Position numbers and translations under genes: made by a program. A stretch of DNA of 64,000 nucleotides from a virus, in IMG/VR virus record IMGVR_UViG_3300048672_000430, positions 1-64,000 of that record. The stretch is one strand, 5' to 3'. Below the pieces are notes generated by a model, which saw only the letters and a list, made by a program, of their open reading frames with translations, did not search any database and was not told the origin of the DNA. Shown piece by piece: positions 5,800-31,903 of the stretch (position 1 is its first letter; each line of letters begins with the position of its first letter).

Positions 5800-8700
5800 T
5801 TAATTATCCGTTTCAATGTAGATAGAACAAATATCTACCCCAACCGCTAGAGCTGTTGTATTATTTGTTCTAAATTGTCTATAAGTTAATAATGTAGTAC
5901 TTGCTGGTACTGTAGTCCCCGGTGTTCCTGATAGTGTACCTGAAACACTCACTCCACTTCCTAAATTAGTAATTTGATAATTTACTACGGCATTTTGTTC
6001 TGGAGAAGAGAATAGTGCAATTTCCCAAGCCGTATTTGTTAAAGTTGGAGCACCTAACCCTGTACCTAATGCTATTGCAGTTTGAGCTACTGATCCACCA
6101 TATACTAAATACCATTGTGTAGCATCTGTAGATAGTTGAGCCATGCCTATCGAGTTTGTAAGTGTGTTAGGCTGTACGTTAGTTGGAGCTGCTGTTGTAG
6201 AACTTACTCCACAAAAATGTCTAGCTCCAGTTACTGTTGCAGCATCTGAAACAACAAATCTAGTTACAAAATGGAATCCACCTAAACCAGTTCCTGTACC
6301 TGTTGTAAACTGAGCATTAGCTATATAATGACTAGCTAAGTTACCAGCAACTGCTGTAGACACATACCCTATTCTTCTCATTCTAGTGGCAATATTGGTT
6401 GTAGCTACTGTTCTAGCTGTAGCTGTTCCTACTATTGTTGGAGCTGTTAATCCAAAGACTCCAGGCACTGTTGTAGCATTTCCCGGAGGGTTCCAGTAAG
6501 CTATTTTATTTCTAGATAATAATGGCTGTACTGTGGTATCTAATCCTGATGGGCCAATAAAAGCTGGCATTATTCTACCTGCAATACTTTTACCGAACAA
6601 TTTTACAGTAGAAGCTGGAGGAGTTGCTGGAGCTGCATTAGTTGCTAATGTTAAATCATTATTATTAATTGTTACATTAGAAGCTCCAGCAAATGCTCCT
6701 GCATTATTATACTGTACTTGAGTAGTTGATCCACCCGGAGAACCTGATAGTGTTACTGGAACCCAGTTAGCACCGTTCCATTGAGGAACTTGATTATTTG
6801 TTGCTCCTGATTGCGTAATGGTAGATAGATCTTGTTGGTGATACCCTACTGCTGGAAAAATAAAAGTTACATCGTCCGTACCTAATGTAGTTAAAGTTCC
6901 AAACTGAACTAAAGATTTATTAGCATTACTTCCTTCAGAAACATACACCATAACATCTTTTAATCGAGCTGCTGTATTTGCATCTGATGCTCTAGTCATG
7001 GCATTTCCAGATCCATTGTATACGTAAATTCCATTTTGACTACTAACGGTCTGGTTAAAAAGTAATACCCTGTCTCCAGAAACCATTACTGTAAAATCGA
7101 TATTGGCTGGAGCTGAAGCAATATTAATATTAGATCCTGCTGAAGATACTCTTACAGTTTTGTATCCAATAACTTCTTGCATATTATCTAATTTAGATTT
7201 GTCAGAAGAAGCCATGAAACCATTTACAGAAGTAGTAGCTGCTGCGTGGTGAGTTCCATCTGTCTGAGATCCGTGTGCGTGAATATGATCTTGTCTAGCA
7301 AAAGCATTAGCTGTACCAGTTTGATTTGTACCGTCGATAGTAGAAGGAGTACCTGTAGCTAAAGGATCTGCACCATTTGGTAAATGTCTAGAAGCGTGTG
7401 CTTCAATAGTAACACCATTTGCTGTACCAATATTTGTAATATTATTGCTACCTAAATTTAAGTTACCAGTTAAAGTTCTACCACCATTAGTTAATAAATA
7501 TTGCGGATGATCATCTGCACTCAATCCAGTTAAGTTAGCATGGACTGAAGCAGCCGAAACACCTGAAGCTTGAAAAGCTAATGTCGGTCTTTCACTTCTA
7601 ATTTGAGAAATATTTGTGTCACCTTGTTTTTGAATTATAGACGCAATTAAACAAATAGTACCAGTAAACCAATCTGGAGGAGTTGGGATTGTTCCAGATT
7701 CTGCATTTACTAAATTTGAATATTCAACTTGTCCCATTACTAAGAATAGTTTTTCGTTAGCACCTTCTCCTGAAGTATATAGTGCATCTCTTCTATAGTA
7801 ATTATTAGATAATGAAACTAAAGTTCCAGATCCATTATCATATTGTGTATTATTAATTTGAGTTTGACTTGCTGTGAAATTGTGTCCACCTGAACCATTT
7901 TCAGTAACTAAAGTAAAACTTACTCCAGTTCCTCCAGATGGATTCATTTCTACTGTACCATACTGATATTTACCAGAAGATACATTCAGACCTCTCGTTC
8001 CATTTTCTGTAACGATTGATCCTGATATATAGATTGCTCCCATATTTCTTGCAAATGTTTCCATTGCATTTCCATGATGTAGCGATTCCATAATAGCACT
8101 ACCTGTCCATAAAACAGAAGATGCTGCTGTCCTAATTCTAGCTAAGTATATTTTGTTAACTAGTCCGGGATTTGAAGTTTGTGCTTGGACTGTCCCTGCT
8201 GAATCTACACAAATATAATATGTAGTATTAGCTGAAAGTCCGCTTAAAGTTGTTGCACCCCATGTTACTTTTGCAACATAGTCGTTTGTAGAGTCATAGC
8301 AGAAACCTTCTCCTGCTGTAACATTAACTGAAAGTCCAGAAGCAGCAGATACTGCTCCGCCTGTATAAGATCCTGTTGTACCTGTTTTTGTAATCAATGT
8401 ACTGATTGGAGTTAACTTAGATAATTTACTCCCTTGTTGGACTTCTCCAATAGTAATAATACCGCCATAATTAGCATCTGTAATTTGTGCAGCAGTAGTT
8501 ACTCCATCTGCTATAGTTATCTTACTAGGAGTAGCTGTGATTGATAATGATGTTGATGAGCCGGGATTTAGAATAGAAATATCAGTAGTATTGTTTAAAA
8601 ATTGAGCACCTACTATATCAATATCCGAACCAGCTCCAGTATTCTCGTTTAATAATCCTATACCTGTTCCAGAAAACATTCTAATTGTAGCATCAGAGAT

Positions 8701-9747
8701 TAAAAGCTCTCCACCATTTAGAATTTTTATACCTATATTATCAGCTCCTCCGGTAAGACCTACAGAGTTCATAATAAGTTCAGCACCTGTACCACTTGAA
8801 TAACAATGTACTGGATTTGTACCAGCAGAAGCATACGAGTAAAAGTTTTCTGCTTGTAGTCTTGCTAGATTTGTAGCTGTGCTTCTGTTTCTTAAAGCAA
8901 ATGTATAATTTCCATTTATATCACAATATTCTGAATATAGGATAGAGCTTGTTGTATTGGCAAAATTATCTATACCAATATCAAAATCGTAAATTGATAA
9001 TTTATGTAACTGAGCAAAATCTCCAGCATCTTCTGCATATATAGCTGCTTTACCACTACCAATAGATCCTACTATACCTTTTAAATTTAAAAATGATACT
9101 TCACACATATTATTTAATACTAATAAATGTTGATTAGCATTTTGGGGTACTAAAGTGGAAGCATTAATTGTAGAACCTTTTAGTGATACACCAGAAGGTA
9201 ATATTGCTGGATTATTTACTGTATGAACTCCTGCTCCTAATTCAATTACATATGGCTTTGTTGTAGGATCTGCATCTGTTATACTAGCAATAGCTGAAGT
9301 TAGAGAAGTAAATTCTCCAGCTCCAGCATTACTTACTTTGACTGTAATAATCTGAGGGGTGATTAGTTTATCATCAGATTCTTTTAAATATTGAGTATGC
9401 GGGTCTGATAATCCATTATGAGTAGCCATTGTAGATGCTGCTGTTCCTGCGGCATCAAAATCTCCAGTGTTTGATTGTGCTGCTGTTCCTAAACCTAAAT
9501 TAGTACGAGCTGTTGCGATATTTTGTAAATCGCTTAAATTGTTATTAGCTAATAATGCTCCAGCATTCCCTGCACCTACTTCTCCCCAATCTGTATCTAA
9601 GTCTCCAAACTTTGTCCAGAGTTTACCTTGATCGTCAAGGGCAATAGAACCTTTAGGAGCAGGAGTCCCTTCCGCAAGGGAAGGATCTCCTATTACTTCT
9701 AAAATTACAACTTCGTTTAATGTTAAGGTTCCATTAATAGTAGCCAT
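5800..9747 (-). CDS. Large tail fibre/tailspike protein with probable beta-helix region
   Basis: 1315 aa, G/T/S/A/N rich; NNLSDL..ARTNLGLG, FTSLTSAI...IELGAGVH (beta-helix entry), GDRVLLFNQ...NGIYVY, PGGSTTQVQYNNAGAF. Confidence 0.75.
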   Translation of the reverse strand: MATINGTLTLNEVVILEVIGDPSLAEGTPAPKGSIALDDQGKLWTKFGDLDTDWGEVGAGNAGALLANNNLSDLQNIATARTNLGLGTAAQSNTGDFDAAGTAASTMATHNGLSDPHTQYLKESDDKLITPQIITVKVSNAGAGEFTSLTSAIASITDADPTTKPYVIELGAGVHTVNNPAILPSGVSLKGSTINASTLVPQNANQHLLVLNNMCEVSFLNLKGIVGSIGSGKAAIYAEDAGDFAQLHKLSIYDFDIGIDNFANTTSSILYSEYCDINGNYTFALRNRSTATNLARLQAENFYSYASAGTNPVHCYSSGTGAELIMNSVGLTGGADNIGIKILNGGELLISDATIRMFSGTGIGLLNENTGAGSDIDIVGAQFLNNTTDISILNPGSSTSLSITATPSKITIADGVTTAAQITDANYGGIITIGEVQQGSKLSKLTPISTLITKTGTTGSYTGGAVSAASGLSVNVTAGEGFCYDSTNDYVAKVTWGATTLSGLSANTTYYICVDSAGTVQAQTSNPGLVNKIYLARIRTAASSVLWTGSAIMESLHHGNAMETFARNMGAIYISGSIVTENGTRGLNVSSGKYQYGTVEMNPSGGTGVSFTLVTENGSGGHNFTASQTQINNTQYDNGSGTLVSLSNNYYRRDALYTSGEGANEKLFLVMGQVEYSNLVNAESGTIPTPPDWFTGTICLIASIIQKQGDTNISQIRSERPTLAFQASGVSAASVHANLTGLSADDHPQYLLTNGGRTLTGNLNLGSNNITNIGTANGVTIEAHASRHLPNGADPLATGTPSTIDGTNQTGTANAFARQDHIHAHGSQTDGTHHAAATTSVNGFMASSDKSKLDNMQEVIGYKTVRVSSAGSNINIASAPANIDFTVMVSGDRVLLFNQTVSSQNGIYVYNGSGNAMTRASDANTAARLKDVMVYVSEGSNANKSLVQFGTLTTLGTDDVTFIFPAVGYHQQDLSTITQSGATNNQVPQWNGANWVPVTLSGSPGGSTTQVQYNNAGAFAGASNVTINNNDLTLATNAAPATPPASTVKLFGKSIAGRIMPAFIGPSGLDTTVQPLLSRNKIAYWNPPGNATTVPGVFGLTAPTIVGTATARTVATTNIATRMRRIGYVSTAVAGNLASHYIANAQFTTGTGTGLGGFHFVTRFVVSDAATVTGARHFCGVSSTTAAPTNVQPNTLTNSIGMAQLSTDATQWYLVYGGSVAQTAIALGTGLGAPTLTNTAWEIALFSSPEQNAVVNYQITNLGSGVSVSGTLSGTPGTTVPASTTLLTYRQFRTNNTTALAVGVDICSIYIETDN

Positions 9748-9756
9748 TCAAACCTC

Positions 9757-12564
9757 TTATCTTATTCTTTGTAATACACATTTCCAAGTAATTGTTTTAG
9801 CATTTACCCCTGTAACTCTTACGTCAACGGCATTTGCGTTAACAATAAAAGTACAATTTGCAGAACCTAATCCAGCATCTTCAATAGTATAATCTGATTG
9901 AATTGTCGCTAAAGATACTGTTCCACCAACATTCTTAACTTTTACAGTTCTCTCATAAGCAACCGAACTGAATGTGTCATCAATCCCTGTTACGAAAACT
10001 TTAATTAACTCAACAGAGTTATTAGCCGGAGTAATAGAAGATACAACAGCATTTACAGAACCTGAAGTAGAAGTTGAAGTACCTCTTAACCCGAAGTTTA
10101 CGTTATTTTCAATTACGTCGATAACACTTACTGGAGAAACCGTACCAACACCTAATCTTGAATTGGCTTCATCGATTGCGGCAGCCGAACCAAAAAGAAT
10201 TTTACCTTTAGTGGCATTTGCTGTAGAGTTGATTGTTAAGTTACCAGAAGCAGCGGTGTCACCTTTTAATACTTGACCGCCAGATCTACCGGCTAATAAA
10301 GCATATTGAGAGTGATCGTCGTCTGATAATCCTGAAATAGATCCGTGATCTAAACCAGACTGAATTACATCAGCAGTAATTGTATTTGAACCATCGTTAT
10401 AAGTGAAGTCAATTGTTGCCGAATCCACTAAAGCACCAGCAACTGCATCTTGAGCAGCTTCTACGAAATCTGTAATATCAGTAGAAACGTGAGTGTGTGA
10501 AGTAGCGGCTTTACCATCAATTTGTGTTTTTAAGCTTTGTAAAACAGTTTGAACTTCTGTTCCAGTTACACCAGAAATAGCAGTTACACCAATATCACCA
10601 GCAGCTAAAACTACTGCACCTGTAAACCCATTTACTGAAGTTACAGAAGAAGATGCAATTTCAATGTATGTAGAACCAGACCATCTATATGTTCTATTAG
10701 TATCTAAAGCAACATAGATTTTACCTGTTTCCCCTGTACCTGGAAATGAAGCTAAGTTTGCAAATTCTAAAACATCATCAACATAAGAAGGTAATTGAGC
10801 TGCTGGAACTTTACCTGTAGCATCTAAAGACGCATAACCGTTAGCCGCACCTTTTTCCGAAGTAGACTGTTTTAAAGCTAAAGCATTAAATACAGCATCT
10901 TGTGAAGGAGCTGAAGTTGTTGCACCAGAGTTAATTCCGTTTACAACTTTTGCATCAGTGTAGGCTTTTGTTGAAGCATCTTGAGCAGAAACTGGATCTA
11001 ATAAGTTAGAAGCATTTCTACCTGTAAGGTTGTAAGCATTTCCTGTTCTCATTAAAGAGTATAGGTTTGCCCAAGTTTCAGGACTTGAATTTGTTAGGAT
11101 GTAATCAACTTGGTGTCCACCAGGAATTGTACCGATTGTTGTAGCACCATCTGTTTTTAATACAGTGATAGTAGCAGCAGATTGGTTATAGATAGTTATT
11201 TTTTCACCAAGAACTAAAGCAGCTAAAGATGGAGCAATAACAACGCTAGTTGCTGTAGACCCAAGAGTAAAAGTAATTTTTCTAGCTGTTGGAGTTTTTA
11301 CTGAACCATCTGGTACGTAAGATACGTATCCACCAGAAGCATCAACATACTGTTTATTTGCTGCATCAGATAATGCTGATGGATCAGATAAATTTGTAAT
11401 GTTATGTGAGTTAAGATCCAAGTTACCTGTCATTGCAACAGAACCGTCTTTCTTAACTACAGCACTATCTAATGCTCTAGTATCAATGTCAGATTGTAAT
11501 TCATTTAATGCACTCTGAACATCAGTAGCGGCTAAGTTACCTGAAGGTATAGAAGAGATTGCTGAAGCATCGTGAGCATCAGTAGCATCTGTTAAGTGGT
11601 CAGATAAAGATGAAGCATCTGCCTTTAAAGCAAGAGCATCAAATACTGCGTTTTGTGAAGGAGCTACATCTGTAACACCGTCTGCAATAGTATCGCCTAC
11701 TGCCGCTGCTTTTGCTCTAGAATCAGTAAAGTATTTATTTGCTGTACCTTCTGAAATATGATCAGTAGTTAATGTAACTGTTCCAGTTTGTCCGTTTACA
11801 GACATTACTTCATTTGAATTAATTGACTTGTGGTATTTTCCATCAGCAGCATACACAGCCCAATCACCAATAGCAAACGTAATAGATCCGTTACCAAAGT
11901 TATGTGATCCAGCAGCCGAAGCTTCATAAACATCCCCAGGGTTACCTGTTCCATCAGTTAATGTAGTAGTCGAAGGATCGAAAAATCCTTGAAGTTCCAT
12001 TACAGAGTTAGGAAGTTGAGATACTGGAACTTTACCACCAGCATCTAAAGTTGCCACACCATTGTTAGCTCCTTTTTCAGAAGAGTCTATTTTTGCATTC
12101 AATTGTGTTTGAATTGAACTTGTTGCATCTAAATAACCTAAAGTTGTAGTAGATACTGAAGAAGCAGATATTACACCTGATGCGTCAGAAACTAAAACCT
12201 TATTAATTGACAATGCAGCTAGCTTAGATAACGCAATTCCTGCTGCCGCAGCAATATGCGAATCCGTAACACTTAGAGCCTTTAAAGCAGCTACTAATGT
12301 TCCTGCTGGATCATCATAAGTAAAATCAATCGTATCCGTGTCGCCTACAGCAGCACCTACAATATCCATTACTTGTTCTGGATCTACAGATGATAATGCC
12401 CAATCGGTATCTCCTGTGTTCCCTTTTTGATAAATACCAACTGAACCAGCAACAATTGCTAAGTCCCCGATATTACCTGAATATCCACCACCAGTTGTTG
12501 GTGCGGAATCTAAAACAACGATCCTTTGATCCCCGATCGTGATTTGGTCTAAAATTACAGCCAT
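9757..12564 (-). CDS. Tail fibre protein
   Basis: 935 aa; GVATLDAGGKVP, LPSYVDDVLEF...GETGKIYVA, DAANKQYVD and SVNG repeats. Confidence 0.75.
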   Translation of the reverse strand: MAVILDQITIGDQRIVVLDSAPTTGGGYSGNIGDLAIVAGSVGIYQKGNTGDTDWALSSVDPEQVMDIVGAAVGDTDTIDFTYDDPAGTLVAALKALSVTDSHIAAAAGIALSKLAALSINKVLVSDASGVISASSVSTTTLGYLDATSSIQTQLNAKIDSSEKGANNGVATLDAGGKVPVSQLPNSVMELQGFFDPSTTTLTDGTGNPGDVYEASAAGSHNFGNGSITFAIGDWAVYAADGKYHKSINSNEVMSVNGQTGTVTLTTDHISEGTANKYFTDSRAKAAAVGDTIADGVTDVAPSQNAVFDALALKADASSLSDHLTDATDAHDASAISSIPSGNLAATDVQSALNELQSDIDTRALDSAVVKKDGSVAMTGNLDLNSHNITNLSDPSALSDAANKQYVDASGGYVSYVPDGSVKTPTARKITFTLGSTATSVVIAPSLAALVLGEKITIYNQSAATITVLKTDGATTIGTIPGGHQVDYILTNSSPETWANLYSLMRTGNAYNLTGRNASNLLDPVSAQDASTKAYTDAKVVNGINSGATTSAPSQDAVFNALALKQSTSEKGAANGYASLDATGKVPAAQLPSYVDDVLEFANLASFPGTGETGKIYVALDTNRTYRWSGSTYIEIASSSVTSVNGFTGAVVLAAGDIGVTAISGVTGTEVQTVLQSLKTQIDGKAATSHTHVSTDITDFVEAAQDAVAGALVDSATIDFTYNDGSNTITADVIQSGLDHGSISGLSDDDHSQYALLAGRSGGQVLKGDTAASGNLTINSTANATKGKILFGSAAAIDEANSRLGVGTVSPVSVIDVIENNVNFGLRGTSTSTSGSVNAVVSSITPANNSVELIKVFVTGIDDTFSSVAYERTVKVKNVGGTVSLATIQSDYTIEDAGLGSANCTFIVNANAVDVRVTGVNAKTITWKCVLQRIR

Positions 12565-21778: not shown

Positions 21779-21991
21779 CTACCCTTTAGAACGTAATTTC
21801 TGCATCCTAACTTTCATTTGTTTACGTACACAATCACTACACTTCCTACCAACCCATAGGTCACCCTTATCATCTACCCATTTCTTATTTCTATTATCAG
21901 GGTACTTACCTACTTGCACACGTAGTTTGATCTCTTGACAAACTGAACATTTACTCATGTTTTGTTCTAATTTTACTTCATCATTTTCCAT
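21779..21991 (-). CDS. Small zinc-finger protein
   Basis: CSVC...CSDC; AGAGG RBS. Confidence 0.55.
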   Translation of the reverse strand: MENDEVKLEQNMSKCSVCQEIKLRVQVGKYPDNRNKKWVDDKGDLWVGRKCSDCVRKQMKVRMQKLRSKG

Positions 21992-22099: not shown

Positions 22100-22591
22100 C
22101 TATTTCCGTTTCTTCACCCACTCCATCGTTCTATCGTTCAGAGCATATACCGGCTGCACTAGATCCACTCCAACATAATACTGAGCAACAAAACCCTTAG
22201 CTTCATCCATGTTCTCAAAAACCCCAACAACGGTCTTATCCTTTCTAATATTCTCAATTACAACAAACACAGCAGGTATACTACAATTCACTAGGATCTT
22301 GGGTTTATATTTTGAATAGCTAATTTTAGCCTTAACAACATCAAACCCGGCAGTAACATACTTCTCAACATAATACTGAGAGTAAATTTGTTTATATAAC
22401 AACTCTTCTGTTTTTAATAAAATTTTTATATAAGATCGATCGCCCACTAATTCTGGAAAATCATCCAAAATTTGACCTATACGAGATTTTAGGTTATTTG
22501 CATATCCAACGTAGCATTTACTAGAAACAGGGTTAATAATGGCAAATACGCAACTATTAGGTAGACTATGGAGAGTATTGATGAAATTCAT
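22100..22591 (-). CDS. Degenerate GIY-YIG-like protein
   Basis: CVFAIINPVSSKCYVGYANNLKSR resembles GIY-YIG...R motif. Confidence 0.5.
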   Translation of the reverse strand: MNFINTLHSLPNSCVFAIINPVSSKCYVGYANNLKSRIGQILDDFPELVGDRSYIKILLKTEELLYKQIYSQYYVEKYVTAGFDVVKAKISYSKYKPKILVNCSIPAVFVVIENIRKDKTVVGVFENMDEAKGFVAQYYVGVDLVQPVYALNDRTMEWVKKRK

Positions 22592-22637
22592 TGTTGTTTT
22601 CCTCAGTAAAAATATAACATTACATTAGGTCGTTATG

Positions 22638-22649
22638 TATAGTTGTTCA
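22638..22649 (-). promoter_or_regulatory. Putative late promoter motif (variant)
   Basis: TGAACAACTATA upstream of 22591. Confidence 0.5.
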
Positions 22650-22834
22650 GTATTAGTGATTTCGATGAGGTGAGTAAAATAGGTGTGGTCGAGAATAGGT
22701 GTTTATATACTTGAATTAGGTGGTATCACGGATGAGCTAACAAAGCCTTTCGTCCCGTCGGAAAGCCCATAGGGGGTAGGTAGGTGGGGGGTGTTTGATA
22801 TGCCAAACTTTTGTATGATGTTGCGAACTTAAGA

Positions 22835-23050
22835 TGGCACGGATCTTGCAGGGATATGCAAGTATCATGCCGGCACGGTAATTGCTATATATGCAAGAAG
22901 TATGCCAAGTGCTAAGTGTCCAATATTGTAGGAGTTCTGGGGTAAGTGGTTGATATGTGATGAAATTATTTGGTATTGATGTTGCTATATATGCAAGGGG
23001 CATGCCGAGGTTTACCCGGTTGAGGGCAATTTTTTGGCATCGATTTTGCA
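22835..23050. repeat. Array of seven sigma54-type -24/-12 boxes in both orientations
   Basis: YGGYAY-N5-TTGCW at 22835(+), 22857(-), 22871(+), 22892(-), 22971(+), 22992(-), 23035(+). Confidence 0.8.
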
Positions 23051-23206
23051 ATTAGACCTGCATCATTATATGCCCCAAAACCAGGAATTTTATTTTTATC
23101 CTTATATACAACGAAAATCTGTCATGCCTGAAAAATTTTTTTAGCGTCTTAACTCTATGTTATCGTTGGTGAATTTCAGATTTTTTAAATTATTTTTGAA
23201 GATCGC

Positions 23207-23235
23207 TTGCAATTATTTTTTAGATCGGTTAAGAT
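23207..23235 (+). promoter_or_regulatory. sigma70-type early promoter
   Basis: TTGCAA-17 nt-TAAGAT with upstream A/T tracts. Confidence 0.55.
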
Positions 23236-23282
23236 TGTTTCAAGGCAAGCAACTAAGCTTGTCGGTAACGAGAGGTTAGAAC

Positions 23283-23345
23283 ATGGTAGCGGTGGTTGTA
23301 GTGATTTTTGTTTCATACTTTTTATTAGAAGTTGTTGGAATATAA
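23283..23345 (+). CDS. 20-aa hydrophobic peptide
   Basis: GAGAGG RBS; MVAVVVVIFVSYFLLEVVGI. Confidence 0.45.
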   Translation: MVAVVVVIFVSYFLLEVVGI

Positions 23346-23393
23346 AAAAAAGCTATAGGTTCCCGTTGTGGATAGTTTTTCAATATGTACTTA

Positions 23394-23405
23394 CATAGTT
23401 GTTAA
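23394..23405 (-). promoter_or_regulatory. Putative late promoter motif pointing left
   Basis: TTAACAACTATG, intergenic. Confidence 0.55.
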
Positions 23406-23426
23406 ATCAACTTTAAAGGAATTGTT

Positions 23427-23681
23427 ATGATAAAAAGTAAAGAGCAGATGAAATTTGAAGCTATGAAAAGAAAACAAGTACTTGAGGCGAAAAGTAAAAA
23501 TAACGCCTTTAATAAGGCGGGGAATGTTAAGACAAGTTTTGGAAAATGTAATAAAGAGTATTTAATTAACATGGGATTTTATGTTAAAGGAGAAAGAAAT
23601 AAACCGAGTAAATCGGCATGGGTAGAAAAAAGATTAGATAAAAATATAATTGAAGTTGACTTAAGAAAAAAGTCATGCTAA
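23427..23681 (+). CDS. Basic early hypothetical protein
   Basis: 84 aa Lys-rich ORF with AAGGA RBS. Confidence 0.55.
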   Translation: MIKSKEQMKFEAMKRKQVLEAKSKNNAFNKAGNVKTSFGKCNKEYLINMGFYVKGERNKPSKSAWVEKRLDKNIIEVDLRKKSC

Positions 23682-23684
23682 TAT
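23656..23684 (+). promoter_or_regulatory. sigma70-type promoter in front of structured RNA
   Basis: TTGACT-17 nt-TAATAT with TGn. Confidence 0.6.
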
Positions 23685-23690
23685 AAAGTA

Positions 23691-24035
23691 AGTAAAGCAA
23701 CTGAGATCGGTCACAAGTCCGACTGAAAAATGCTGAGTGATTATTTAAACAAAGTACCAAAATAGGTACTATACTCAAAGAACATGATTCGGGTAGACCC
23801 CAATCCTAGGGCTTTGAATGAAACACTCACGAACCACGGCGAAAAACGCTGAAAGCTTGACAATGCAAATTGTCTGCATCGTGTAAGAAAAATGCTTATG
23901 AACCACAAGTGATCGAAAAGTCGGTGGTTGCAAGTGAAGGCTACATCATGTAAATGATGAGAGATAACCATTAAGCATTGTTTTAAACATACAATGTCCT
24001 GTTGCAAGTCAGGCTGAGAAAATGTGAGCAAAACA
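23691..24035 (+). ncRNA. Candidate structured non-coding RNA, family unassigned
   Basis: About ten nested stems, two GNRA-capped hairpins, duplicated hairpin module with compensatory changes; no plus-strand ORF; upstream promoter. Confidence 0.65.
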
Positions 24036-24056
24036 AAATATAAACCGAGGTGATTT

Positions 24057-24296
24057 ATGTATGAACAACATCGAATCGAATTGATTCGTTCAATACGTAT
24101 TTACTTATCTATGTATAAGGTATCTAAATTAGAGAATTATTTGGATTCTGCGGTCAGAGTAATGAAACAACTAGATGATCTAAATAAGGAAAATATAAAC
24201 GAATATAAAAACCTAGTGAATCTTCAAAATAAAAGAGATGAGCTAAATAATTTCTTAGATCAAACAAATAACACTGTATTTTTAAAAGCTTCTTAG
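24057..24296 (+). CDS. Early hypothetical protein
   Basis: GAGGTG RBS, 79 aa. Confidence 0.6.
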   Translation: MYEQHRIELIRSIRIYLSMYKVSKLENYLDSAVRVMKQLDDLNKENINEYKNLVNLQNKRDELNNFLDQTNNTVFLKAS

Positions 24297-24305
24297 GAGT
24301 ATGTA

Positions 24306-24431
24306 ATGGAAAAATTCTATGATCGATTTAATGAAATGGAATATAGTGATTATATTGAGGAAAATGATTTAGACTTTGACTATGAAGACGACGATGAGGA
24401 AGATCAATTTATTTACACTGATAATTTTTAG
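24306..24431 (+). CDS. 41-aa highly acidic peptide
   Basis: AGGAG RBS; MEKFYDRFNEMEYSDYIEENDLDFDYEDDDEEDQFIYTDNF. Confidence 0.55.
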   Translation: MEKFYDRFNEMEYSDYIEENDLDFDYEDDDEEDQFIYTDNF

Positions 24432-24763
24432 AGGTACTTATGACAATTTATGATGCAGTAATTGTGTTTTTCATATCAACTATTGGGCTAACAATGACAA
24501 TTTGTTTCCTGGAAATGTTTACAATCTACGCAAAATTACAGTAATTATCGAGGTAGCCTATGTACTACATCAAAGGTAAGCTATTAAAAAATAGGTACGA
24601 ACTATATGATAAGGCCAAAACTATAAGCGAGGCCACTAAGTTATTGAAACAATATAAAAAAACCTTTAAGAAAATTAAATTCAAGATACAATTCATAAAT
24701 ACCTAGTAATCTAATGTATTGAGACGATCGTCTTAACCTTAAAATGTATTAGATTAAATTAAA

Positions 24764-24794
24764 GGGCGGTTTAATATCGCCCCCTGTCCTTTTT
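24764..24794 (+). terminator. Intrinsic terminator-like hairpin
   Basis: GGGCGGT-TTAAT-ATCGCCC then CCTGTCCTTTTT. Confidence 0.55.
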
Positions 24795-25084: not shown

Positions 25085-26545
25085 GTGAAAATGAACTTAG
25101 AATCATTTACTGTTAAGGGTACAATAATTCAAACAAATAAAGACTTATATGGTGGTGGATATGGTGGCACATATATTTATAAGATCGTAAAGAGTGCCAA
25201 ATTAAATCCAGATAAAACATTCCTAACTAATCAACCAATTCTTGTAAACGAAGACAACAGGCGAATATATCCTTATCTAACAAATTCTAGATTATTAGAA
25301 TTAAATATTAAAGAAATCAAATGTGAAAAAACAATAAAAGAATTTAATAAAATTTTAGTTGACTCGAAAAGGAAAAATGCCTTTAAAAATCTAACCAACG
25401 GTATTGTAGAAACTTTAGGAAGCGACCCTGAAATTTTTGTGGTAGATGAAAACGATAAAGTAATTCCTTCTTATGAATTTTTAAATGGTAAAGATAATCC
25501 AAATTTAACAGGAACATACAAGGAATTTAAAATAAATGGTAATTGTGGTGCAAATGTAAATCAAAAAATGTTTTGGGACGGTTTCCAAGCTGAATTTAAT
25601 ACAGATGCTCAAAGTTGTTTAGCCTGGGTATGTGACTCGACTGTACTCGGTTTACAATCCGTTTTGAAAGAAGCAAAAAAGTATAATCCAAATGCAAGAT
25701 TAACAATTCAAACAACAGTAGACATTGATAAGAATGTTCTAGATAACGCTAAACCTGAACATGTAGAGTTCGGTTGTATGCCATCGTTTAACGTATATAA
25801 TATGTCAGGAATCAAGGCAGATGGTAGGTCGGTATCATTTAGATCAGCAGGTGGACATATTCACTTCGGTATGAGTGACTTAACTAAAACGAAAGCTAAA
25901 AGATATGTAAAGGCACTAGATAAGATTCTAGGTGTTGCATGTGTTTCATTGTTTAATACTTACGACGACCCTAGAAGACGTACTATGTACGGATTAGCAG
26001 GTGAATATAGATTACCTGCACACGGTTTAGAATATAGAACATTAAGTAATGCGTGGTTATCTCACCCGCTTATTATGAATCTAGTATTTGAAATGGCTAG
26101 AAAGGTAATAGGTGCAGAAGAGGACGAACAAATGCAATTCTGGGATTCAACAGAAGAAGAAACTATTAGATGTATCAATACATGTGATGTTGATTTAGCT
26201 AGGGAGATTTTAGCAAGAAATAAAACAAACCTGATTAATCTCTTAAAATCTATAAGTTCTATAAGTTATAATGAAAATGCTGAATATATCTATAAAATTT
26301 TAATGTTAGGTATGCAATCGATCATTGAAAATCCTGATGATATATCGGGTAATTGGTCATTCGAAAATCTTTATAAAGGTCATTGTGATGCAGACGGTAT
26401 GCAACTTATTACAATAGATAATATACCAAATTATAGATTATTAAAAGATGAGAAGGTTACTGCGATATATGAACAACTAGCATTTAATATTAAGCAATTA
26501 GATAATGATGAGGAAACTATGACATTGAAAGAAGTTATGGGGTAG
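25085..26545 (+). CDS. phiEco32-like COOH-NH2 ligase type 2
   Basis: LGSDPEIFV, DGFQAEFN, FGCMPSFN, RSAGGHIHFG, RRTMYGLAGEYR, GLEYRTLSN. Confidence 0.85.
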   Translation: MKMNLESFTVKGTIIQTNKDLYGGGYGGTYIYKIVKSAKLNPDKTFLTNQPILVNEDNRRIYPYLTNSRLLELNIKEIKCEKTIKEFNKILVDSKRKNAFKNLTNGIVETLGSDPEIFVVDENDKVIPSYEFLNGKDNPNLTGTYKEFKINGNCGANVNQKMFWDGFQAEFNTDAQSCLAWVCDSTVLGLQSVLKEAKKYNPNARLTIQTTVDIDKNVLDNAKPEHVEFGCMPSFNVYNMSGIKADGRSVSFRSAGGHIHFGMSDLTKTKAKRYVKALDKILGVACVSLFNTYDDPRRRTMYGLAGEYRLPAHGLEYRTLSNAWLSHPLIMNLVFEMARKVIGAEEDEQMQFWDSTEEETIRCINTCDVDLAREILARNKTNLINLLKSISSISYNENAEYIYKILMLGMQSIIENPDDISGNWSFENLYKGHCDADGMQLITIDNIPNYRLLKDEKVTAIYEQLAFNIKQLDNDEETMTLKEVMG

Positions 26546-26548
26546 GTC

Positions 26549-27250
26549 ATGAATGAACTAAAGATTTTAATTTCAAATAGTGCATTGGTTTTAAATTACT
26601 ACGATAAGGAACTTAAGAAATCTGCTATAAGAAATAAAGGCTTATATGATGTAAGCGATGAAAATCTACATAAAGTTTGTAATGATGTATTTAGTATGGT
26701 GATAGGTAAACCAACAAATTTTAGTTGGACGGATTGCCAAGCAATATTTGACTTAATAGAGCGTGATTATGAAATAAAGGATAAGTAAATGAATAGATTA
26801 GAAATAGCAATGAAAATTCTTCAATGGGAAGGTGATGCAATCACTAAACATAGAAAGTTTGTTGATAACTTTATTAATGAAAATGAATTTAATGAAGTCT
26901 TAAAAGAAGCAGCATGTATAGAATTAGGTATTGAAGAAATCGAATTTGAAAGAATGAGCGATGAAGAATTTTTTAATGTAATGTTTGAATATTCTCATAA
27001 CAATACAGTTATGGTAGCAAGCTAGGTAATTATGCAAATATTTAACGTGTCTGCTGAGGTTATAAAAAAACCTAAAAAATGTTCGCATTGTGATAAATTA
27101 AAAGAAACAGGTTCAAGTATGTACTTCGGTCATACAATTCTATTCTCATTAAACAATAACAAAACTAAAGAGTTGCATTGGACATGTGAGGAATGTGTTA
27201 AAACAAAACATGGGTACTTGACAGAATGTTATTGTATGGATTATTTATGA
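26549..27250 (+). CDS. Three small hypothetical genes (26549-26788, 26789-27025, 27032-27250; last has CxxC pairs)
   Basis: Abutting plus-strand ORFs. Confidence 0.5.
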
Positions 27251-27381
27251 AAAGGTTTATAACAGAACACCACGATTTTTTAGTTGTGTTGTTAATTATG
27301 GGATTATTCGCAAAAGCCCTGTTATTAATTTTTAATATATTAGGATCATATACTATAAATGAATACTTTATGAGGTAAATT

Positions 27382-27672
27382 ATGCACGCATTTGTAGAAG
27401 ACATACTACAATTCACTTTAAACAATAAGAAGCATCAACATTTTCAAGAAAAGGAAACAAGATATTCATTCGTTATATGTAATAGGAATATATATGCTCA
27501 CGATAGTAGTGTGACATTACACAATGGTAAAACGGATATACATAGGAATTTTGATAGATTTAATGTGATTAAATCACCTCATAGATTACAGCCTATTTTT
27601 TTAAGTCGAGAAACTATGAGAGATTCTTATAAAAATAGACCATTTAGTGATTTGGTAAAAATAGTGGAGTAG
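27382..27672 (+). CDS. IxQ/YxF family small protein
   Basis: ILQF...RYSF...LVKIVE; GAGGT RBS. Confidence 0.55.
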   Translation: MHAFVEDILQFTLNNKKHQHFQEKETRYSFVICNRNIYAHDSSVTLHNGKTDIHRNFDRFNVIKSPHRLQPIFLSRETMRDSYKNRPFSDLVKIVE

Positions 27673-27861
27673 TAAATGGAAAAAATAAAACATATTTATT
27701 CAAAAGAATTAGGTCAATTATTTATGAGAATGACCGACGAAGAATATTTCGATTGGTTGAAAACAAACGAAGTAGAATATACTAAACCATTATTGGAATT
27801 AATAAATGAAGATAAGGCTAATCTAAGTGATGAAGATTATACAGATACATAGGGGAACATC

Positions 27862-28026
27862 ATGATAATAATACAATGCGATAACGATTTATGTGAAGCC
27901 GGAAATGAATGGTCTGAACATATTAATTATCGATTTAGTAATGATTATATAGATTACGATGATTTCTTAAATAATGTTTCAAATGAAGAAGAATATAGAA
28001 TAATATGGGAGGATACAAATGATTAA
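27862..28026 (+). CDS. IxQ/YxF family microprotein (54 aa)
   Basis: MIIIQC...NYRF...YRIIW; read by hand. Confidence 0.55.
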   Translation: MIIIQCDNDLCEAGNEWSEHINYRFSNDYIDYDDFLNNVSNEEEYRIIWEDTND

Positions 28027-29419
28027 TGTTGGATCAATAATAAAAATTAATGATGAACTTTGTCCAGAAAATGAACGCTCTAATAAAAGATTTCAATTCG
28101 GTGCTTTAAATTATATCGCAATTATGTTGGATTGGGAGTTTGAGGTAGTACGAGAATTTAAAGATGAGTTTCATGGTGACATGGTAGAATGTAAAATTAC
28201 CAATAGTGATAATATCAAGTCAAACATTGTTCTTAGAACACAAGATACAGTGTTAGCTAAGTCAAATAAATTCAATTTAACTTATGAGATTATCGGTAAA
28301 ACAGGAAGGTTTGATGCTGAGATAAGAGAACTCAAGAGAGAAGAAAATGATCTACTCTTAGTTCGTGCGGAAGAAAAAAGAAAAGGCACACCGATCACTG
28401 ATAAAACACTTATTCAAAATTGGTCAGAAGTTAAATCAGTTAGAAATAAGATCAAGCGTTATCAAGAAAATACTGATAAAGTTTTTGTTGTCAAACATTC
28501 GTCTGGTACTTACGAGATTGATTGTGCTGAGGAACAAATTCCAACAAAGCTTAGATCTTTAATTAGAAGTATGCGTGCTGATAGACGCAAAGTTTACCCT
28601 GTCACAAAAGAAATTGGTGGCGGTATGACATTAGAGAAATTAGGTAATGTCATGGTTAAACCTGGTAAGTTCCTGGAATTAAATGAGAAGTATGCTTTGA
28701 ATATTATTAAGGCACATAAGAAACCTACAACAAACGATAACTATGTTGGTATTGAAATTGAGATGTTATCACCTAAAAGTATTGAAGAAATGAATAAAGA
28801 GTTTATTAAGTCAAGATTACATAAGTATGTGAATGTTGGTACAGATGGTTCAATTAGAAGTGACATTAGTGGTGTTCATGCTATGGAATTGAGGGTATGT
28901 TTACCTGAAAACTTATTAGCTACTCATTTAAAAATGATTACAGAAGTATTACGTAAAACAGACTCTTATGCAAATCGTTCATGTGGTATGCACGTTCACG
29001 TTGATATGAGAAATCGTGACCCTGAGCTATGTTACAGAAACTTCTTTAAAGTTCAAAATATTATGCTACAAGCTCAACCATTAACTAGACGTACAAACCA
29101 ATACTGCAAACCTAGTACGATAGCTAGCAAAAAATTAAAAGACTTCTCAAGTAATGGTGATGATAACGTGAGACGACAAGCAATTAATACTGACTCGTAT
29201 CATAAAAACGATATGAAGACTATTGAGATCAGAGTACACGAAGGTGCTACTAAGTTCAAAGATATATTTAATTGGGTAAATTTCTTAGTTGCGACCGCTT
29301 CCCTTAAAAAAGATTTGGACGCACCTATTAATACTATTAAAGAATTAAGATCTGCTAATTTCGTAAATGAATTAGTAATTAATCATTTAAATGAACGTAT
29401 TGAAGAGTATTCGGCTTAA
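28019..29419 (+). CDS. Putative amidoligase (Amidoligase_2-like)
   Basis: YVGIEIEM, TDGSI, MELR, SCGMHVHVD, KTIEIR. Confidence 0.8.
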   Translation: MINVGSIIKINDELCPENERSNKRFQFGALNYIAIMLDWEFEVVREFKDEFHGDMVECKITNSDNIKSNIVLRTQDTVLAKSNKFNLTYEIIGKTGRFDAEIRELKREENDLLLVRAEEKRKGTPITDKTLIQNWSEVKSVRNKIKRYQENTDKVFVVKHSSGTYEIDCAEEQIPTKLRSLIRSMRADRRKVYPVTKEIGGGMTLEKLGNVMVKPGKFLELNEKYALNIIKAHKKPTTNDNYVGIEIEMLSPKSIEEMNKEFIKSRLHKYVNVGTDGSIRSDISGVHAMELRVCLPENLLATHLKMITEVLRKTDSYANRSCGMHVHVDMRNRDPELCYRNFFKVQNIMLQAQPLTRRTNQYCKPSTIASKKLKDFSSNGDDNVRRQAINTDSYHKNDMKTIEIRVHEGATKFKDIFNWVNFLVATASLKKDLDAPINTIKELRSANFVNELVINHLNERIEEYSA

Positions 29420-29447
29420 TTATAATAAAACTAATATGAGGTAAAAA

Positions 29448-30665
29448 ATGTGTAAAGTTATGGTAATGACCGGGATAGAAAATAATGATCTAGCCCTGAG
29501 ATTTATGAAAGCAGTAGCACCCAACATGTCAGTAGGTAATACCGACGGCATTGGGTACTCCGCAGTAAATTCTAAGAATCAACTGTTCATGGAAAAATGG
29601 CACGTTAATAATAAGTTCTTAAATACGAACGATGTTGTAGACGCTAAGACTATTGAGGAATTAAAACCTTATGAGAATAGGATAGGTAAACTCCAATTAA
29701 ATTACACAAGTTATGGTGATGTAACAAGAGACGATCTTAGATCAGTGACTATGCACACCAGGTACGCAACATGTGGAAAAACATTTGAGAATACTCACCC
29801 ATTTATTGAAAATGATATATCCCTTATTCATAATGGTGTTATTCAAAATTCTTTTACATTAGCATTAAATAAAAATTCAACTTGTGACTCCGAAAACGCT
29901 TTACAATTATACAATAACTTACAAGTTAATTTGAGTAAGAAAAGTACAGACTATCAAAGTTTCCTAGATAAGTTAAAGGGTTATTGGGCATTTGCTTTTC
30001 TTGCAAAAGATTCTGAAGGTACATATCAACTAGATGTTGTTCGTGAGGGTGCACCATTATACTTTGCAAAGATTGAAGAAATCGGAGTTAATTGTGTTGT
30101 GTTTGCAACAACAAAAGAAATCATCGAGATAGGTTGTAAAGAATTAGAGTTACCAGTTAGATCACAGATCTATCTACTAACTGAGTCTAACTATCACAGA
30201 TTTAACGCATTAACAGGCGAGTTAATACTTAATAAACAACTCGAAGATTCTTTATTAAATGCTTCATCGTATAGCTATTCAAAAGTATTTAAATCAAATA
30301 AGACAAAGAAAAAAGAACCTTATCAACCACTAAATAATAACAACATAGATGAATACTATGACTACTACAATAGTCAAGAAAATTACAAGGATCTTACATC
30401 AGTAACCGATGAGTTCTTATTAGATTCGTTCTATGATATTAATGAGCCTTTAGTTGATAGACTTGATTCTTATGATAAAATGTTCGACACTGAGTATTTA
30501 TCTAACTTTGAAGATCTAGCTATTAAAATCCGTGACTTCATAACAAAACAAGAATATAAAGAAGTTATTAGTTTTGCCGAAATTATCTTAATGTTAGACG
30601 CTTATATTGCAAGTGAAAATATATCAGACCTTTATAAAGTATTTAGAAATAAACGTAGGGCTTAA
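29448..30665 (+). CDS. Class II (Ntn) glutamine amidotransferase
   Basis: Cys2 (MCK), DGIG, HTRYAT, NTHPF, HNG, CDSE. Confidence 0.85.
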   Translation: MCKVMVMTGIENNDLALRFMKAVAPNMSVGNTDGIGYSAVNSKNQLFMEKWHVNNKFLNTNDVVDAKTIEELKPYENRIGKLQLNYTSYGDVTRDDLRSVTMHTRYATCGKTFENTHPFIENDISLIHNGVIQNSFTLALNKNSTCDSENALQLYNNLQVNLSKKSTDYQSFLDKLKGYWAFAFLAKDSEGTYQLDVVREGAPLYFAKIEEIGVNCVVFATTKEIIEIGCKELELPVRSQIYLLTESNYHRFNALTGELILNKQLEDSLLNASSYSYSKVFKSNKTKKKEPYQPLNNNNIDEYYDYYNSQENYKDLTSVTDEFLLDSFYDINEPLVDRLDSYDKMFDTEYLSNFEDLAIKIRDFITKQEYKEVISFAEIILMLDAYIASENISDLYKVFRNKRRA

Positions 30666-30668
30666 TTT

Positions 30669-30809
30669 ATGGACATAATACAATACAAATCAAGATACTA
30701 TTGGTTTAGATTTAGAGAAAATCGCATTAACTTTTATTACTCTTCGGAAACCTTAATAGAAAGCGGAGGTAATGACCTTCCTTATTGTGTAATTAAAAAC
30801 CTGGATTAA
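30669..30809 (+). CDS. IxQ/YxF family microprotein (46 aa)
   Basis: MDIIQYKSRYYWFRFRENRINFY...ESGGNDLPYCVIKNLD; clear paralog of next ORF. Confidence 0.65.
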   Translation: MDIIQYKSRYYWFRFRENRINFYYSSETLIESGGNDLPYCVIKNLD

Positions 30810-30822
30810 TTTGGAGGTATAA

Positions 30823-30981
30823 ATGTATGACGTAGAATTGATACAGTATACTGAAAAAAGAACATTTTATTTTAGATTTCGTATTGATAATGTAAACTTT
30901 TATTGGAATAAAAACTTTTCATCGATTATTAAATCCGGTGGAAATTACATTCCTCATAACATAATTAAAATAATAGATTAA
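30823..30981 (+). CDS. IxQ/YxF family microprotein (52 aa)
   Basis: GGAGG RBS; LIQY...FYFRFRIDNVNFY...KSGGNYIPHNIIKIID. Confidence 0.7.
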   Translation: MYDVELIQYTEKRTFYFRFRIDNVNFYWNKNFSSIIKSGGNYIPHNIIKIID

Positions 30982-30992
30982 CGGGAGAAGTT

Positions 30993-31151
30993 ATGTTGCT
31001 CACTCAATATAATAAATTTATCAGTCCGTCTCTTAGATATATTTTTCGACTATCTTCAGATGGTTATATATATAACAATAATGGAAGATTACATGGATCG
31101 ACTATCCCTGATGATGATAAACTATATCAAATAATAATGGAGAGAATATGA
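30993..31151 (+). CDS. IxQ/YxF family microprotein (52 aa)
   Basis: GGAG RBS; LTQY...RYIF...YQII; ATGA overlap with ATP-grasp gene. Confidence 0.6.
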   Translation: MLLTQYNKFISPSLRYIFRLSSDGYIYNNNGRLHGSTIPDDDKLYQIIMERI

Positions 31152-31903
31152 AATTCACAATACTATATAGTGGTCGTTCTTCTAAAACAGGAAGGGATTT
31201 ATTAAATAAATTCAAGCCTTTATCTAGAAAGGCATTTAGAAAACGAACAGAAAAACGATTCAATACTGATGTTATTTTAAGATGGGGGTCAACTGAGACT
31301 TTCAATAAGTTAAGAGGTAGGCTAGAACTAAACACTTTAGAAGCTGTCAGAAATGCAAGCAATAAGTTAATCATGATGCAAAAATTAGTTGAGGCTAATA
31401 TTCCAACCGCAGAAATTCTTTTCAATCCTTATAATCAATCTCAAGATGTTATAGACAATTATCGTGATGATAATGGTGGATTTTTTATCAGAGGTTCAAA
31501 CGATTCAATAAGATATGACGATAGTATTAATCCTAATGACAAGTATATATCTAAACCAATTGTAAATAAGCGTAGAGAATATAGAGTCCACGTATTCAAT
31601 GGTGAAGTTATAGCTATCTATGAGAAAATTCCTAACGATGAGAATGTTAAGTTATTCAAATCATATAACTGTCATTTCGAATTAAAGAATATAGAAAATT
31701 GTAGGCTAACCGAACAAGATAAACAAGTTTGTATAGATGCTGTAAATAAATTAGGATTACTATTTGGTGGTGTAGATTTAATGCGAGATAAGAATAAGAA
31801 AGTCTTTGTTTCGGAAGTAAATAGTGCCCCGGCTTTAAATGGAACTAACATAGATAGATATGTAACCAAAATAAACGAGTACATTCAAGCGATGGGAGTT
31901 TAA
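31148..31903 (+). CDS. ATP-grasp (RimK-like) ligase
   Basis: LRWG, ASNK, REYRVHVF, LGLLFGGVD, EVNSAPAL. Confidence 0.85.
   Translation: MKFTILYSGRSSKTGRDLLNKFKPLSRKAFRKRTEKRFNTDVILRWGSTETFNKLRGRLELNTLEAVRNASNKLIMMQKLVEANIPTAEILFNPYNQSQDVIDNYRDDNGGFFIRGSNDSIRYDDSINPNDKYISKPIVNKRREYRVHVFNGEVIAIYEKIPNDENVKLFKSYNCHFELKNIENCRLTEQDKQVCIDAVNKLGLLFGGVDLMRDKNKKVFVSEVNSAPALNGTNIDRYVTKINEYIQAMGV

Follow-up and report, generated by a model that had tools for sequence, protein, structure and literature searches.

The type-P1 twister ribozyme (Rfam family RF03160; the class of Roth et al. 2014, reviewed in PMC5408937) combines a helix P1, a four-pair P2, a P4 with an invariant extra G-C pair, the pseudoknots T1 and T2, an N-A cleavage step and conserved letters in loops L4 and L1 (GU...AAG..C, AAA and GA). 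In published work, about 20% of twisters have a short junction in place of P3 and P1 is dispensable (PMC5408937), imperfections in P1 are tolerated (PMC11662667), and why bacterial and phage twisters associate with their genes is described as undetermined (review, PMC6765202). We analysed a window of 64,000 nucleotides (nt), the first 64 kb of the 82,107-base IMG/VR virus record IMGVR_UViG_3300048672_000430 (96% complete, from a freshwater metagenome), in which an element at 23683-24038 carries all of these type-P1 features at each of its two ends. Sequence comparison leads us to a probability of roughly 0.7 that the element is a self-contained cassette for a discrete early non-coding RNA, made up of a promoter, a first twister, a four-domain RNA of about 230 nt (hereafter the cargo) and a second twister. 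This reading is based on the twister folds, the cargo fold, the promoter-like site, the modular position of the element and the restriction of twisters to it.

Several described systems resemble this arrangement in part. The Tornado design (PMC7324948, PMC12628768) likewise places an RNA between two twisters behind a promoter, with 5'-hydroxyl (5'-OH) and 2',3'-cyclic phosphate ends. The cassette differs in being natural, in having type-P1 ribozymes at both ends, in that ribozyme 1 would stay in the product, and in having no designed or conserved end-joining stem; circularisation is disfavoured. In Tornado, the ribozymes are reportedly removed from the product. Theta ribozymes, which are similar to the hepatitis delta virus ribozyme and lie by phage tRNAs (PMC10879173), are also phage ribozymes that process a non-coding RNA, but they belong to another ribozyme class and have a tRNA cargo of known function, whereas ARAGORN found no tRNA in the window. 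Viroid-like RNAs and retrozymes (PMC7761336, PMC6765202) are non-coding RNAs of a few hundred nt bounded by self-cleaving ribozymes, as is predicted here; in contrast, the cassette is single-copy in a DNA phage genome without tandem repeats, its ribozymes are unlike in sequence and neither reconstitutes the other, and it bears no sign of RNA replication or retrotransposition. GOLLD, ROOL and HK022 put are, like the cassette, structured non-coding RNAs in phage genomes; the cassette differs from GOLLD and ROOL in size and in having no match to either in Rfam at the thresholds tried. A possible link between Drum RNA and ribozymes found no support in passages of PMC5737381 and was dropped.

Phage twisters are known already; what is new is the cargo fold and the dedicated promoter-ribozyme-RNA-ribozyme layout. 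In the literature listings and passages covered, neither a twister-flanked non-coding RNA gene of a DNA phage nor a DNA-phage-encoded, ribozyme-made circular non-coding RNA was described. Strand was assigned from the twister matches, which occur on the plus strand only. The features of the cassette are the following.

23656-23684, plus strand: sigma-70-type promoter-like site TTGACT-17-TAATAT, 9/12 matches, with TG before the -10 box, which ends 9 nt before cut 1.
23683-23747, plus strand: ribozyme 1, a predicted type-P1 twister without P3 (RF03160, 38.2 bits, E 2.8e-6; covariation).
U23693/A23694, plus strand: predicted cleavage site 1, at the N-A step in the Rfam consensus alignment and the twister alignments.
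23694-23984, plus strand: predicted excised RNA of 291 nt with 5'-OH and 2',3'-cyclic phosphate, comprising ribozyme 1 and H1-H4.
23753-23770, plus strand: H1, a hairpin of 6 base pairs (bp) with conserved loop AA[A/C]AUA; 94.4% paired, 3/6 pairs changed on both sides.
23775-23817, plus strand: H2, with loop UAGAC; outer stem 88.9% paired, 6/6 pairs changed on both sides.
23828-23883, plus strand: H3, a three-way junction whose three stems are fully paired in 6/6 loci, with a different sequence in each.
23884-23890, plus strand: conserved junction UAAGAAA; weak pairing with the 3' tail possible, about 0 kcal/mol.
23891-23979, plus strand: H4, a multi-branch domain whose closing stem has 46/46 pairs in 6/6 loci, with a different sequence in each.
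23974-24038, plus strand: ribozyme 2, a predicted type-P1 twister without P3 (64.2 bits with our model R1, of which it is a training sequence; covariation).
U23984/A23985, plus strand: predicted cleavage site 2, at the N-A step of ribozyme 2.

Homologous elements were compared across seven loci (the window, L036, L048, L049, L050, L051 and L078), six of which enter the cargo statistics. Both ends of the cassette are, as judged from their sequences, twister ribozymes of a variant subtype that are predicted to self-cleave. The earlier note on this DNA had described the same module at both ends, with stems that differ and yet pair; both modules are real and read as type-P1 twisters. A pattern of the two modules gave 2 matches against 0.00 expected, the pattern itself being derived from those modules. 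In ribozyme 1, P1 is formed by 23686-23692/23740-23746 (6/7 pairs), P2 by 23696-23699/23731-23734 and P4 by 23707-23710/23719-23722, with pseudoknots T2 at 23700-23701/23717-23718 and T1 at 23712-23714/23737-23739. The same elements of ribozyme 2 are found at 23978-23983/24031-24036 (P1, 6/7 pairs), 23987-23990/24022-24025 (P2), 23998-24001/24010-24013 (P4), 23991-23992/24008-24009 (T2) and 24003-24005/24028-24030 (T1). Both copies have the U/AA step, the four-pair P2, an AC that pairs with a GU in the P4 loop to form T2, and P4 with its extra G-C pair, while their three-pair T1 differs (CAC:GUG versus UGC:GCA).

Both pseudoknots depart from the described class. The 'conserved GC' of L2 is replaced by AC in both window ribozymes and compensated by GU in L4, and T2 is AC:GU rather than the conserved GC:GC in 10 of the 12 cassette ribozymes; the middle letters of T1 deviate from the consensus CCC:GGG, and across the cassettes T1 varies freely (CAC:GUG, UGC:GCA, UAC:GUA, CCA:UGG, UGU:ACA). 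The letters that are kept are A+1, the next A, G-U...A-A-G..C in L4, and AAA and GA in L1. In E-value mode, the RF03160 match of ribozyme 1 (23689-23743) spans the whole model with P3 deleted. RF03160 also matches both ends in L036 (the same as L047), L048, L049 and L051, plus ribozyme 1 of the partial locus L050, at 37.5-66.9 bits, with the syntenic ribozyme 2 of relatives at 42.1-66.9 bits; the right-hand ribozyme of L036 has a P3 hairpin. R1, a twister covariance model built in this analysis, encodes P1, P2 and P4 and no pseudoknots. Ribozyme 1 scores 70.4 bits with R1, but is one of its training sequences. R1 missed ribozyme 1 of L078, whose T1 reads UGU:ACA by eye.

Covariation was assessed mainly in 12 ribozymes from the seven loci, aligned to R1. 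In this alignment 92.9% of cells were paired, compared with 29-37% when partners were slid. P2 and P4 were 100% paired, with both-side changes at 4/4 and 3/4 pairs, respectively, and P1 was 79.8% paired with 7/7 pairs covarying. The two pseudoknots, which lie outside R1, were also 100% paired: T1 covaried at 3/3 pairs and T2, with AU in 10 ribozymes and GC in 2 plus an invariant CG, at 1/2. A wider set was made from a pattern drawn from the two window copies, which matched 32 viral contigs; 16 were retained by eye and gave 17 ribozymes, the other 15 contigs and one duplicate were dropped, and the window's two brought the set to 19 sequences. Here 91.3% of cells were paired versus 28-36% slid, and P1, P2, P4 and T1 all covaried. 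Because the wider set was picked by eye, the 12 ribozymes are the better test. Run on the whole 82-kb genome, R1 found these two twisters only, so the pair belongs to this RNA and does not punctuate the operon in general; in an 81.5-kb relative it found ribozyme 2 alone, and ribozyme 1 was identified there by eye. Another viral contig, L017, carries three P3-less twisters about 3 kb apart (12178-12242, 8982-9046 and 6112-6183, minus strand), which look like ordinary operon punctuation, unlike those in the window.

The cargo between the two ribozymes is, on comparative sequence evidence, a new conserved RNA fold (H1-H4) without a match in Rfam: no family was reported at E up to 10 (22400-24400), nor at E up to 5 in the loci of five relatives. 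The suggestion that the RNA might be GOLLD- or ROOL-like found no support, as no Rfam family reached its gathering score in the whole window. H2 consists of an outer stem (23775-23780/23812-23817) and inner stems (23786-23789/23802-23805 and 23791-23793/23799-23801), the latter 100% paired with 5/7 pairs changed on both sides, and its internal loop carries a conserved AUG. Taken together, the 19 pairs of H1 and H2 were 94.7% paired, against 20-50% when slid, and 14 had changed on both sides. H3 has a closing stem (23828-23832/23879-23883) and two hairpins, H3a (23837-23841/23847-23851), with an A-rich loop, and H3b (23859-23864/23869-23874), whose loop is GCAA in the window and mostly of the GNRA type across loci. 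The strands of the H3 closing stem, H3a and H3b pair with their own partners at 31/31, 30/30 and 31/31 positions, whereas strands crossed between loci pair at 48%, 43% and 37%. The H4 closing stem (23891-23898/23972-23979) has 6-9 pairs among loci, and its crossed strands pair at 38%. Pairing of the UAAGAAA junction with the 3' tail is suggestive only. The predicted excised RNA measures 299, 260, 272, 303 and 304 nt in relatives.

Most of the cargo stems listed from the single sequence recur in this fold. AGTACC/GGTACT corresponds to H1, TCAAAG/CTTTGA to H2a, the hairpin GACAAT-GCAA-ATTGTC to H3b and AATGCTTA/TAAGCATT to the closing stem of H4, each supported by covariation in relatives. The pairing of CACG at 23835 with CGTG at 23880 was slightly off, the supported helix being CACGA (23828-23832) with TCGTG (23879-23883). 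The two inner hairpins of H4 also pair in the window: AACCAC/GTGGTT (23901-23906/23924-23929), which has a counterpart in L036, read by eye, and CATCAT-GTAA-ATGATG (23944-23949/23954-23959). The H4 interior varies among relatives, also in length. A hairpin with loop ACUUGAAGU is common to the H4 interior of L049 (1101-1122), L051 and L078; different hairpins take its place in the window, L036 and L048. We rejected the stem TGAGTG 23734/CACTCA 23824, which would compete with T1 of ribozyme 1 and is not conserved, complementarity being present in at most 2/6 relatives (by eye). Overall, the twister folds and the conserved cargo fold bear out the earlier note's folded plus-strand RNA behind a promoter, and its proposal that homologs be checked for covariation was answered by twister and cargo stems that covary across the seven loci. 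Its 'free-standing RNA' gains support in a specific sense: since the end modules are twisters, the picture becomes one of an RNA cut out at both ends by predicted ribozymes.

There is no sense open reading frame (ORF) of at least 30 amino acids (aa) between 23682 and 24056, in agreement with the stretch having been described as free of plus-strand ORFs. The claimed promoter stands as a site, TTGACT-17-TAATAT being present with 9/12 matches, but such a site alone is not above chance (27 promoter-like sites in 6 kb versus 31.9 expected). Across the relatives, TTGAC[ATG]-17-TAnnnT abuts ribozyme 1 in 7/7 loci, with 11/12 matches in L048 and, by eye, TTGACA-17-TATAAT in L078. It overlaps the end of the gene for an 84-aa protein in five loci, the end of a small membrane ORF in L048 and an acidic ORF in L078; the same signal therefore recurs in three different coding contexts. 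The distance from the end of the -10 box to the cut is 9, 18, 9, 6, 9, 9 and 3 nt in the seven loci, and a start about 7 nt past the -10 box would fall a few nt before the cut in most of them and at the cut in L049. The position of the cassette itself varies in the same way, after the 84-aa gene, the small membrane ORF (L048) or the acidic ORF (L078), and the downstream genes differ. The genes flanking the cassette in the window are as follows.

23427-23681, plus strand: upstream gene for an 84-aa basic protein (from the ORF list); a homolog lies 5' of the cassette in 7/7 loci.
24047-24296, plus strand: first downstream gene, 79 aa, with ribosome-binding site GAGGTG at 24047-24052 and ATG at 24057.

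The 84-aa gene adjoins the cassette in the window, L036, L049, L050 and L051, and lies about 300-350 nt further upstream in L048 and L078. Its product has 17 homologs, the query included, and no match in Pfam, PHROG or PDB; the Atlas structure model is of low confidence (pLDDT 0.42) and gave no usable neighbours. The genes 3' of ribozyme 2 are not the same among relatives.

The relatives came from several searches. A blastn search with 23600-24100 returned nothing among 50,697 phage records. L036, one of the 32 contigs matched by the module pattern, can be aligned to the window along the entire element (79% column identity) and has a gene related to that of the 486-aa ligase. A single-sequence scan with the 84-aa protein found nothing and a two-sequence alignment found the L036 contig only; an alignment of the protein searched against Joint Genome Institute metagenomes led to four loci, all with the element. 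L048, L049 and L051 carry the ribozyme pair, and L050 ends inside the cargo. Searching with nhmmer and the cargo gave the L036 contig only. Cargo sequence patterns matched 53 and 9 viral loci and 13 genome loci, with L078 the one new relative; the others had no R1 match except a weak one in L070 (19.9 bits, E 0.061), and a match in L081, inside a coding region, was discarded as chance. R2, a covariance model of H1-H2 (effective sequence number 2.69), had no match beyond its 7 training loci across 49 sources totalling 561 kb. In 12 loci with relatives of the 486-aa ligase, no twister was found by Rfam gathering score or R1, and RF03160 found none in 5 whole records. A sequencing-run search for the stretch gave one matching DNA run, probably the source, and no RNA run.

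In the proposed mechanism, early transcription of the region would be driven by its own promoter, by read-through from the 84-aa gene, or by both. The two type-P1 twisters would then cut, each at its own 5' edge, at U23693/A23694 and U23984/A23985. The first cut would free the RNA from the upstream mRNA, or trim a leader of a few nt, and the second would separate it from the downstream mRNA, with ribozyme 2 becoming the 5' end of the latter. The product would be a 291-nt RNA with 5'-OH and 2',3'-cyclic phosphate, which would retain ribozyme 1 as a compact 5' domain; its 5' end would be buried in the double pseudoknot of that ribozyme and its 3' tail would lie at the foot of H4. It may be a stable, discrete RNA that acts in trans, most plausibly by binding protein.

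Several observations weigh against this account. Ribozyme 1 matched the type-P1 twister model at 38.2 bits, short of the RF03160 gathering score of 67.2 bits, Rfam did not list ribozyme 2 at any E value up to 10, and the relatives' ribozymes are also all below the gathering score (best 66.9 versus 67.2). The gathering score reflects curation rather than structure, and the shortfall arises mainly because P3 is missing and pseudoknot letters are changed. A start about 7 nt past the -10 box would fall inside P2 in L078, and in several loci would omit most of the 5' strand of P1, yet P1 is conserved; read-through from the 84-aa gene would supply that strand. Both strands give much the same, modest folding z-score (-2.85 for plus versus -2.88 for minus). 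With 7 closely related loci, the family is small and of little phylogenetic breadth, and shared ancestry inflates the covariation statistics. Finally, the AUG of H2 is kept in 6/6 loci and is followed by a similar short peptide start in 4/6.

The last of these points touches the least probable of the alternatives considered, a micro-peptide encoded in the cargo and read from the H2 AUG (23784 in the window). The ATG is present in 6/6 loci and four of the frames begin M[IV]R[VI]D.[NS]P..L[ND]E[ST], but the predicted lengths are 22, 43, 10, 30, 18 and 19 aa with scattered stops, and L048 and L051 diverge. In five of six loci there is no Shine-Dalgarno-like motif, and in L036 the motif is too near the ATG. 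By eye, the differences between the window and L036 fall mostly at paired positions and are compensatory; no difference, synonymous or otherwise, separates the window from L078 in the first 18 nt. Hardly more probable is the cis-acting antiterminator of the HK022 put kind suggested in the earlier note, in which the nascent fold would bind the polymerase and carry it past downstream terminators. The element does immediately follow a promoter and opens a long early operon, and a terminator-like hairpin lies at 24764-24782; against this, ribozyme 2 separates the fold from the downstream genes and should sever the RNA from the polymerase-bound transcript, the placement of the cassette is modular with varying downstream genes, and a four-domain cargo of about 230 nt is far larger than put. 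We know of no Rfam model for put.

We regard it as improbable, though less so than either of these, that the twisters merely punctuate an early polycistron and that the middle is a leader, spacer or cis-regulator. Single twisters of the same subtype stand about 3 kb apart on other phage contigs, as do the three of L017, and about 20 nt separate ribozyme 2 from the ribosome-binding site that follows it. However, about 45 bp with compensatory changes are kept in the middle, which is unexpected of a spacer, the downstream gene varies among loci and is separated from the fold by ribozyme 2, and the 82-kb genome holds no more twisters detectable by R1. The strongest competitor, itself unlikely, is a natural 'Tornado', in which a host RtcB-type ligase would join the 5'-OH and the 2',3'-cyclic phosphate into a 291-nt exonuclease-resistant circle; a variant that we consider just as doubtful adds that the cargo fold would prevent ribozyme 1 from acting once the ends are ligated, through pairing of the tail with the AAGAAAC junction or with the sequence that follows ribozyme 1. 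Twister cleavage yields ends of the kind that RtcB uses, and the synthetic twister-flanked design gives circles, also in E. coli with native RtcB (PMC7324948, PMC12628768). A ribozyme a few nt from the likely transcription start would fit the need for a 5'-OH rather than a triphosphate, and in the window the tail sequence UUGUUU is complementary to an AAACAA that immediately follows ribozyme 1. The circle is disfavoured because ribozyme 1, being of type P1, would stay whole inside the product: ligation would rebuild the U/A site, and re-cutting is possible since P1 is dispensable. There is no conserved end-joining stem, and the 5' strand of ribozyme 2 P1 is mismatched to the 3' strand of ribozyme 1 P1. 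The idea of a splint, in which the 3' tail would pair with the junction or the sequence just beyond ribozyme 1, was set aside and not counted, the duplexes being A/U-rich and about 0 kcal/mol; pairing of the tail with the post-ribozyme-1 stretch occurs in about 4/6 loci (by eye). In 6/6 loci, closing the circle would cost the predicted fold 3-7 kcal/mol relative to the linear form, and the phage has no RtcB gene.

Transcription units in the window point left as far as about 22.6 kb and right from 23.4 kb onward, and the cassette therefore heads a rightward early/replication operon, which encodes phiEco32-type ligase, amidoligase, GATase, RimK, RNR, ThyX, ERF, DnaB, PolB and C5-methylase. Just downstream, 25085-31903 holds a four-enzyme set of phiEco32-type COOH-NH2 ligase, amidoligase, glutamine amidotransferase and RimK-type ATP-grasp. 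Between the two gene directions lies an ORF-free strand-switch stretch of about 830 nt (22592-23430), kept in L078, L036 and L048 (nhmmer E 3.9e-32, 2.2e-23 and 8.3e-15, respectively). Within it, TGGCA..N..TTGCA / ATGCAAG..ATGCC motifs recur and conservation is strong in a block at about 22730-22790, ACGGATGA...GTCCCGTCG.GAAA.CCCATAGGGGGTA; it has no Rfam match (the best, T-box, has 15.9 bits and E 1.1). Across the strand switch from the cassette, the minus strand encodes a 163-aa protein (22100-22591) with a weak N-terminal GIY-YIG match (E 3.2e-4, below cutoff) and a Cys-rich 70-aa protein (21779-21991), both of them syntenic in L036 and L078. On the other side, a very acidic 41-aa ORF ending in ..DNF (24306-24431) and a membrane-like 34-aa ORF (24440-24544) recur beside the cassette in L036, L048 and L078, in an order relative to the cassette that differs.

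The cassette would offer a concrete, testable example of ribozymes as the end-makers of a non-coding RNA gene, and a naturally occurring parallel to a synthetic design in wide use. Its predicted processing signature is clean, which should make the RNA easy to detect and purify. If the RNA acts on the host or on a defence system, it would represent a new type of phage early function; if the circular form were to prove true, the phage would make a long-lived circular regulatory or decoy RNA early in infection.

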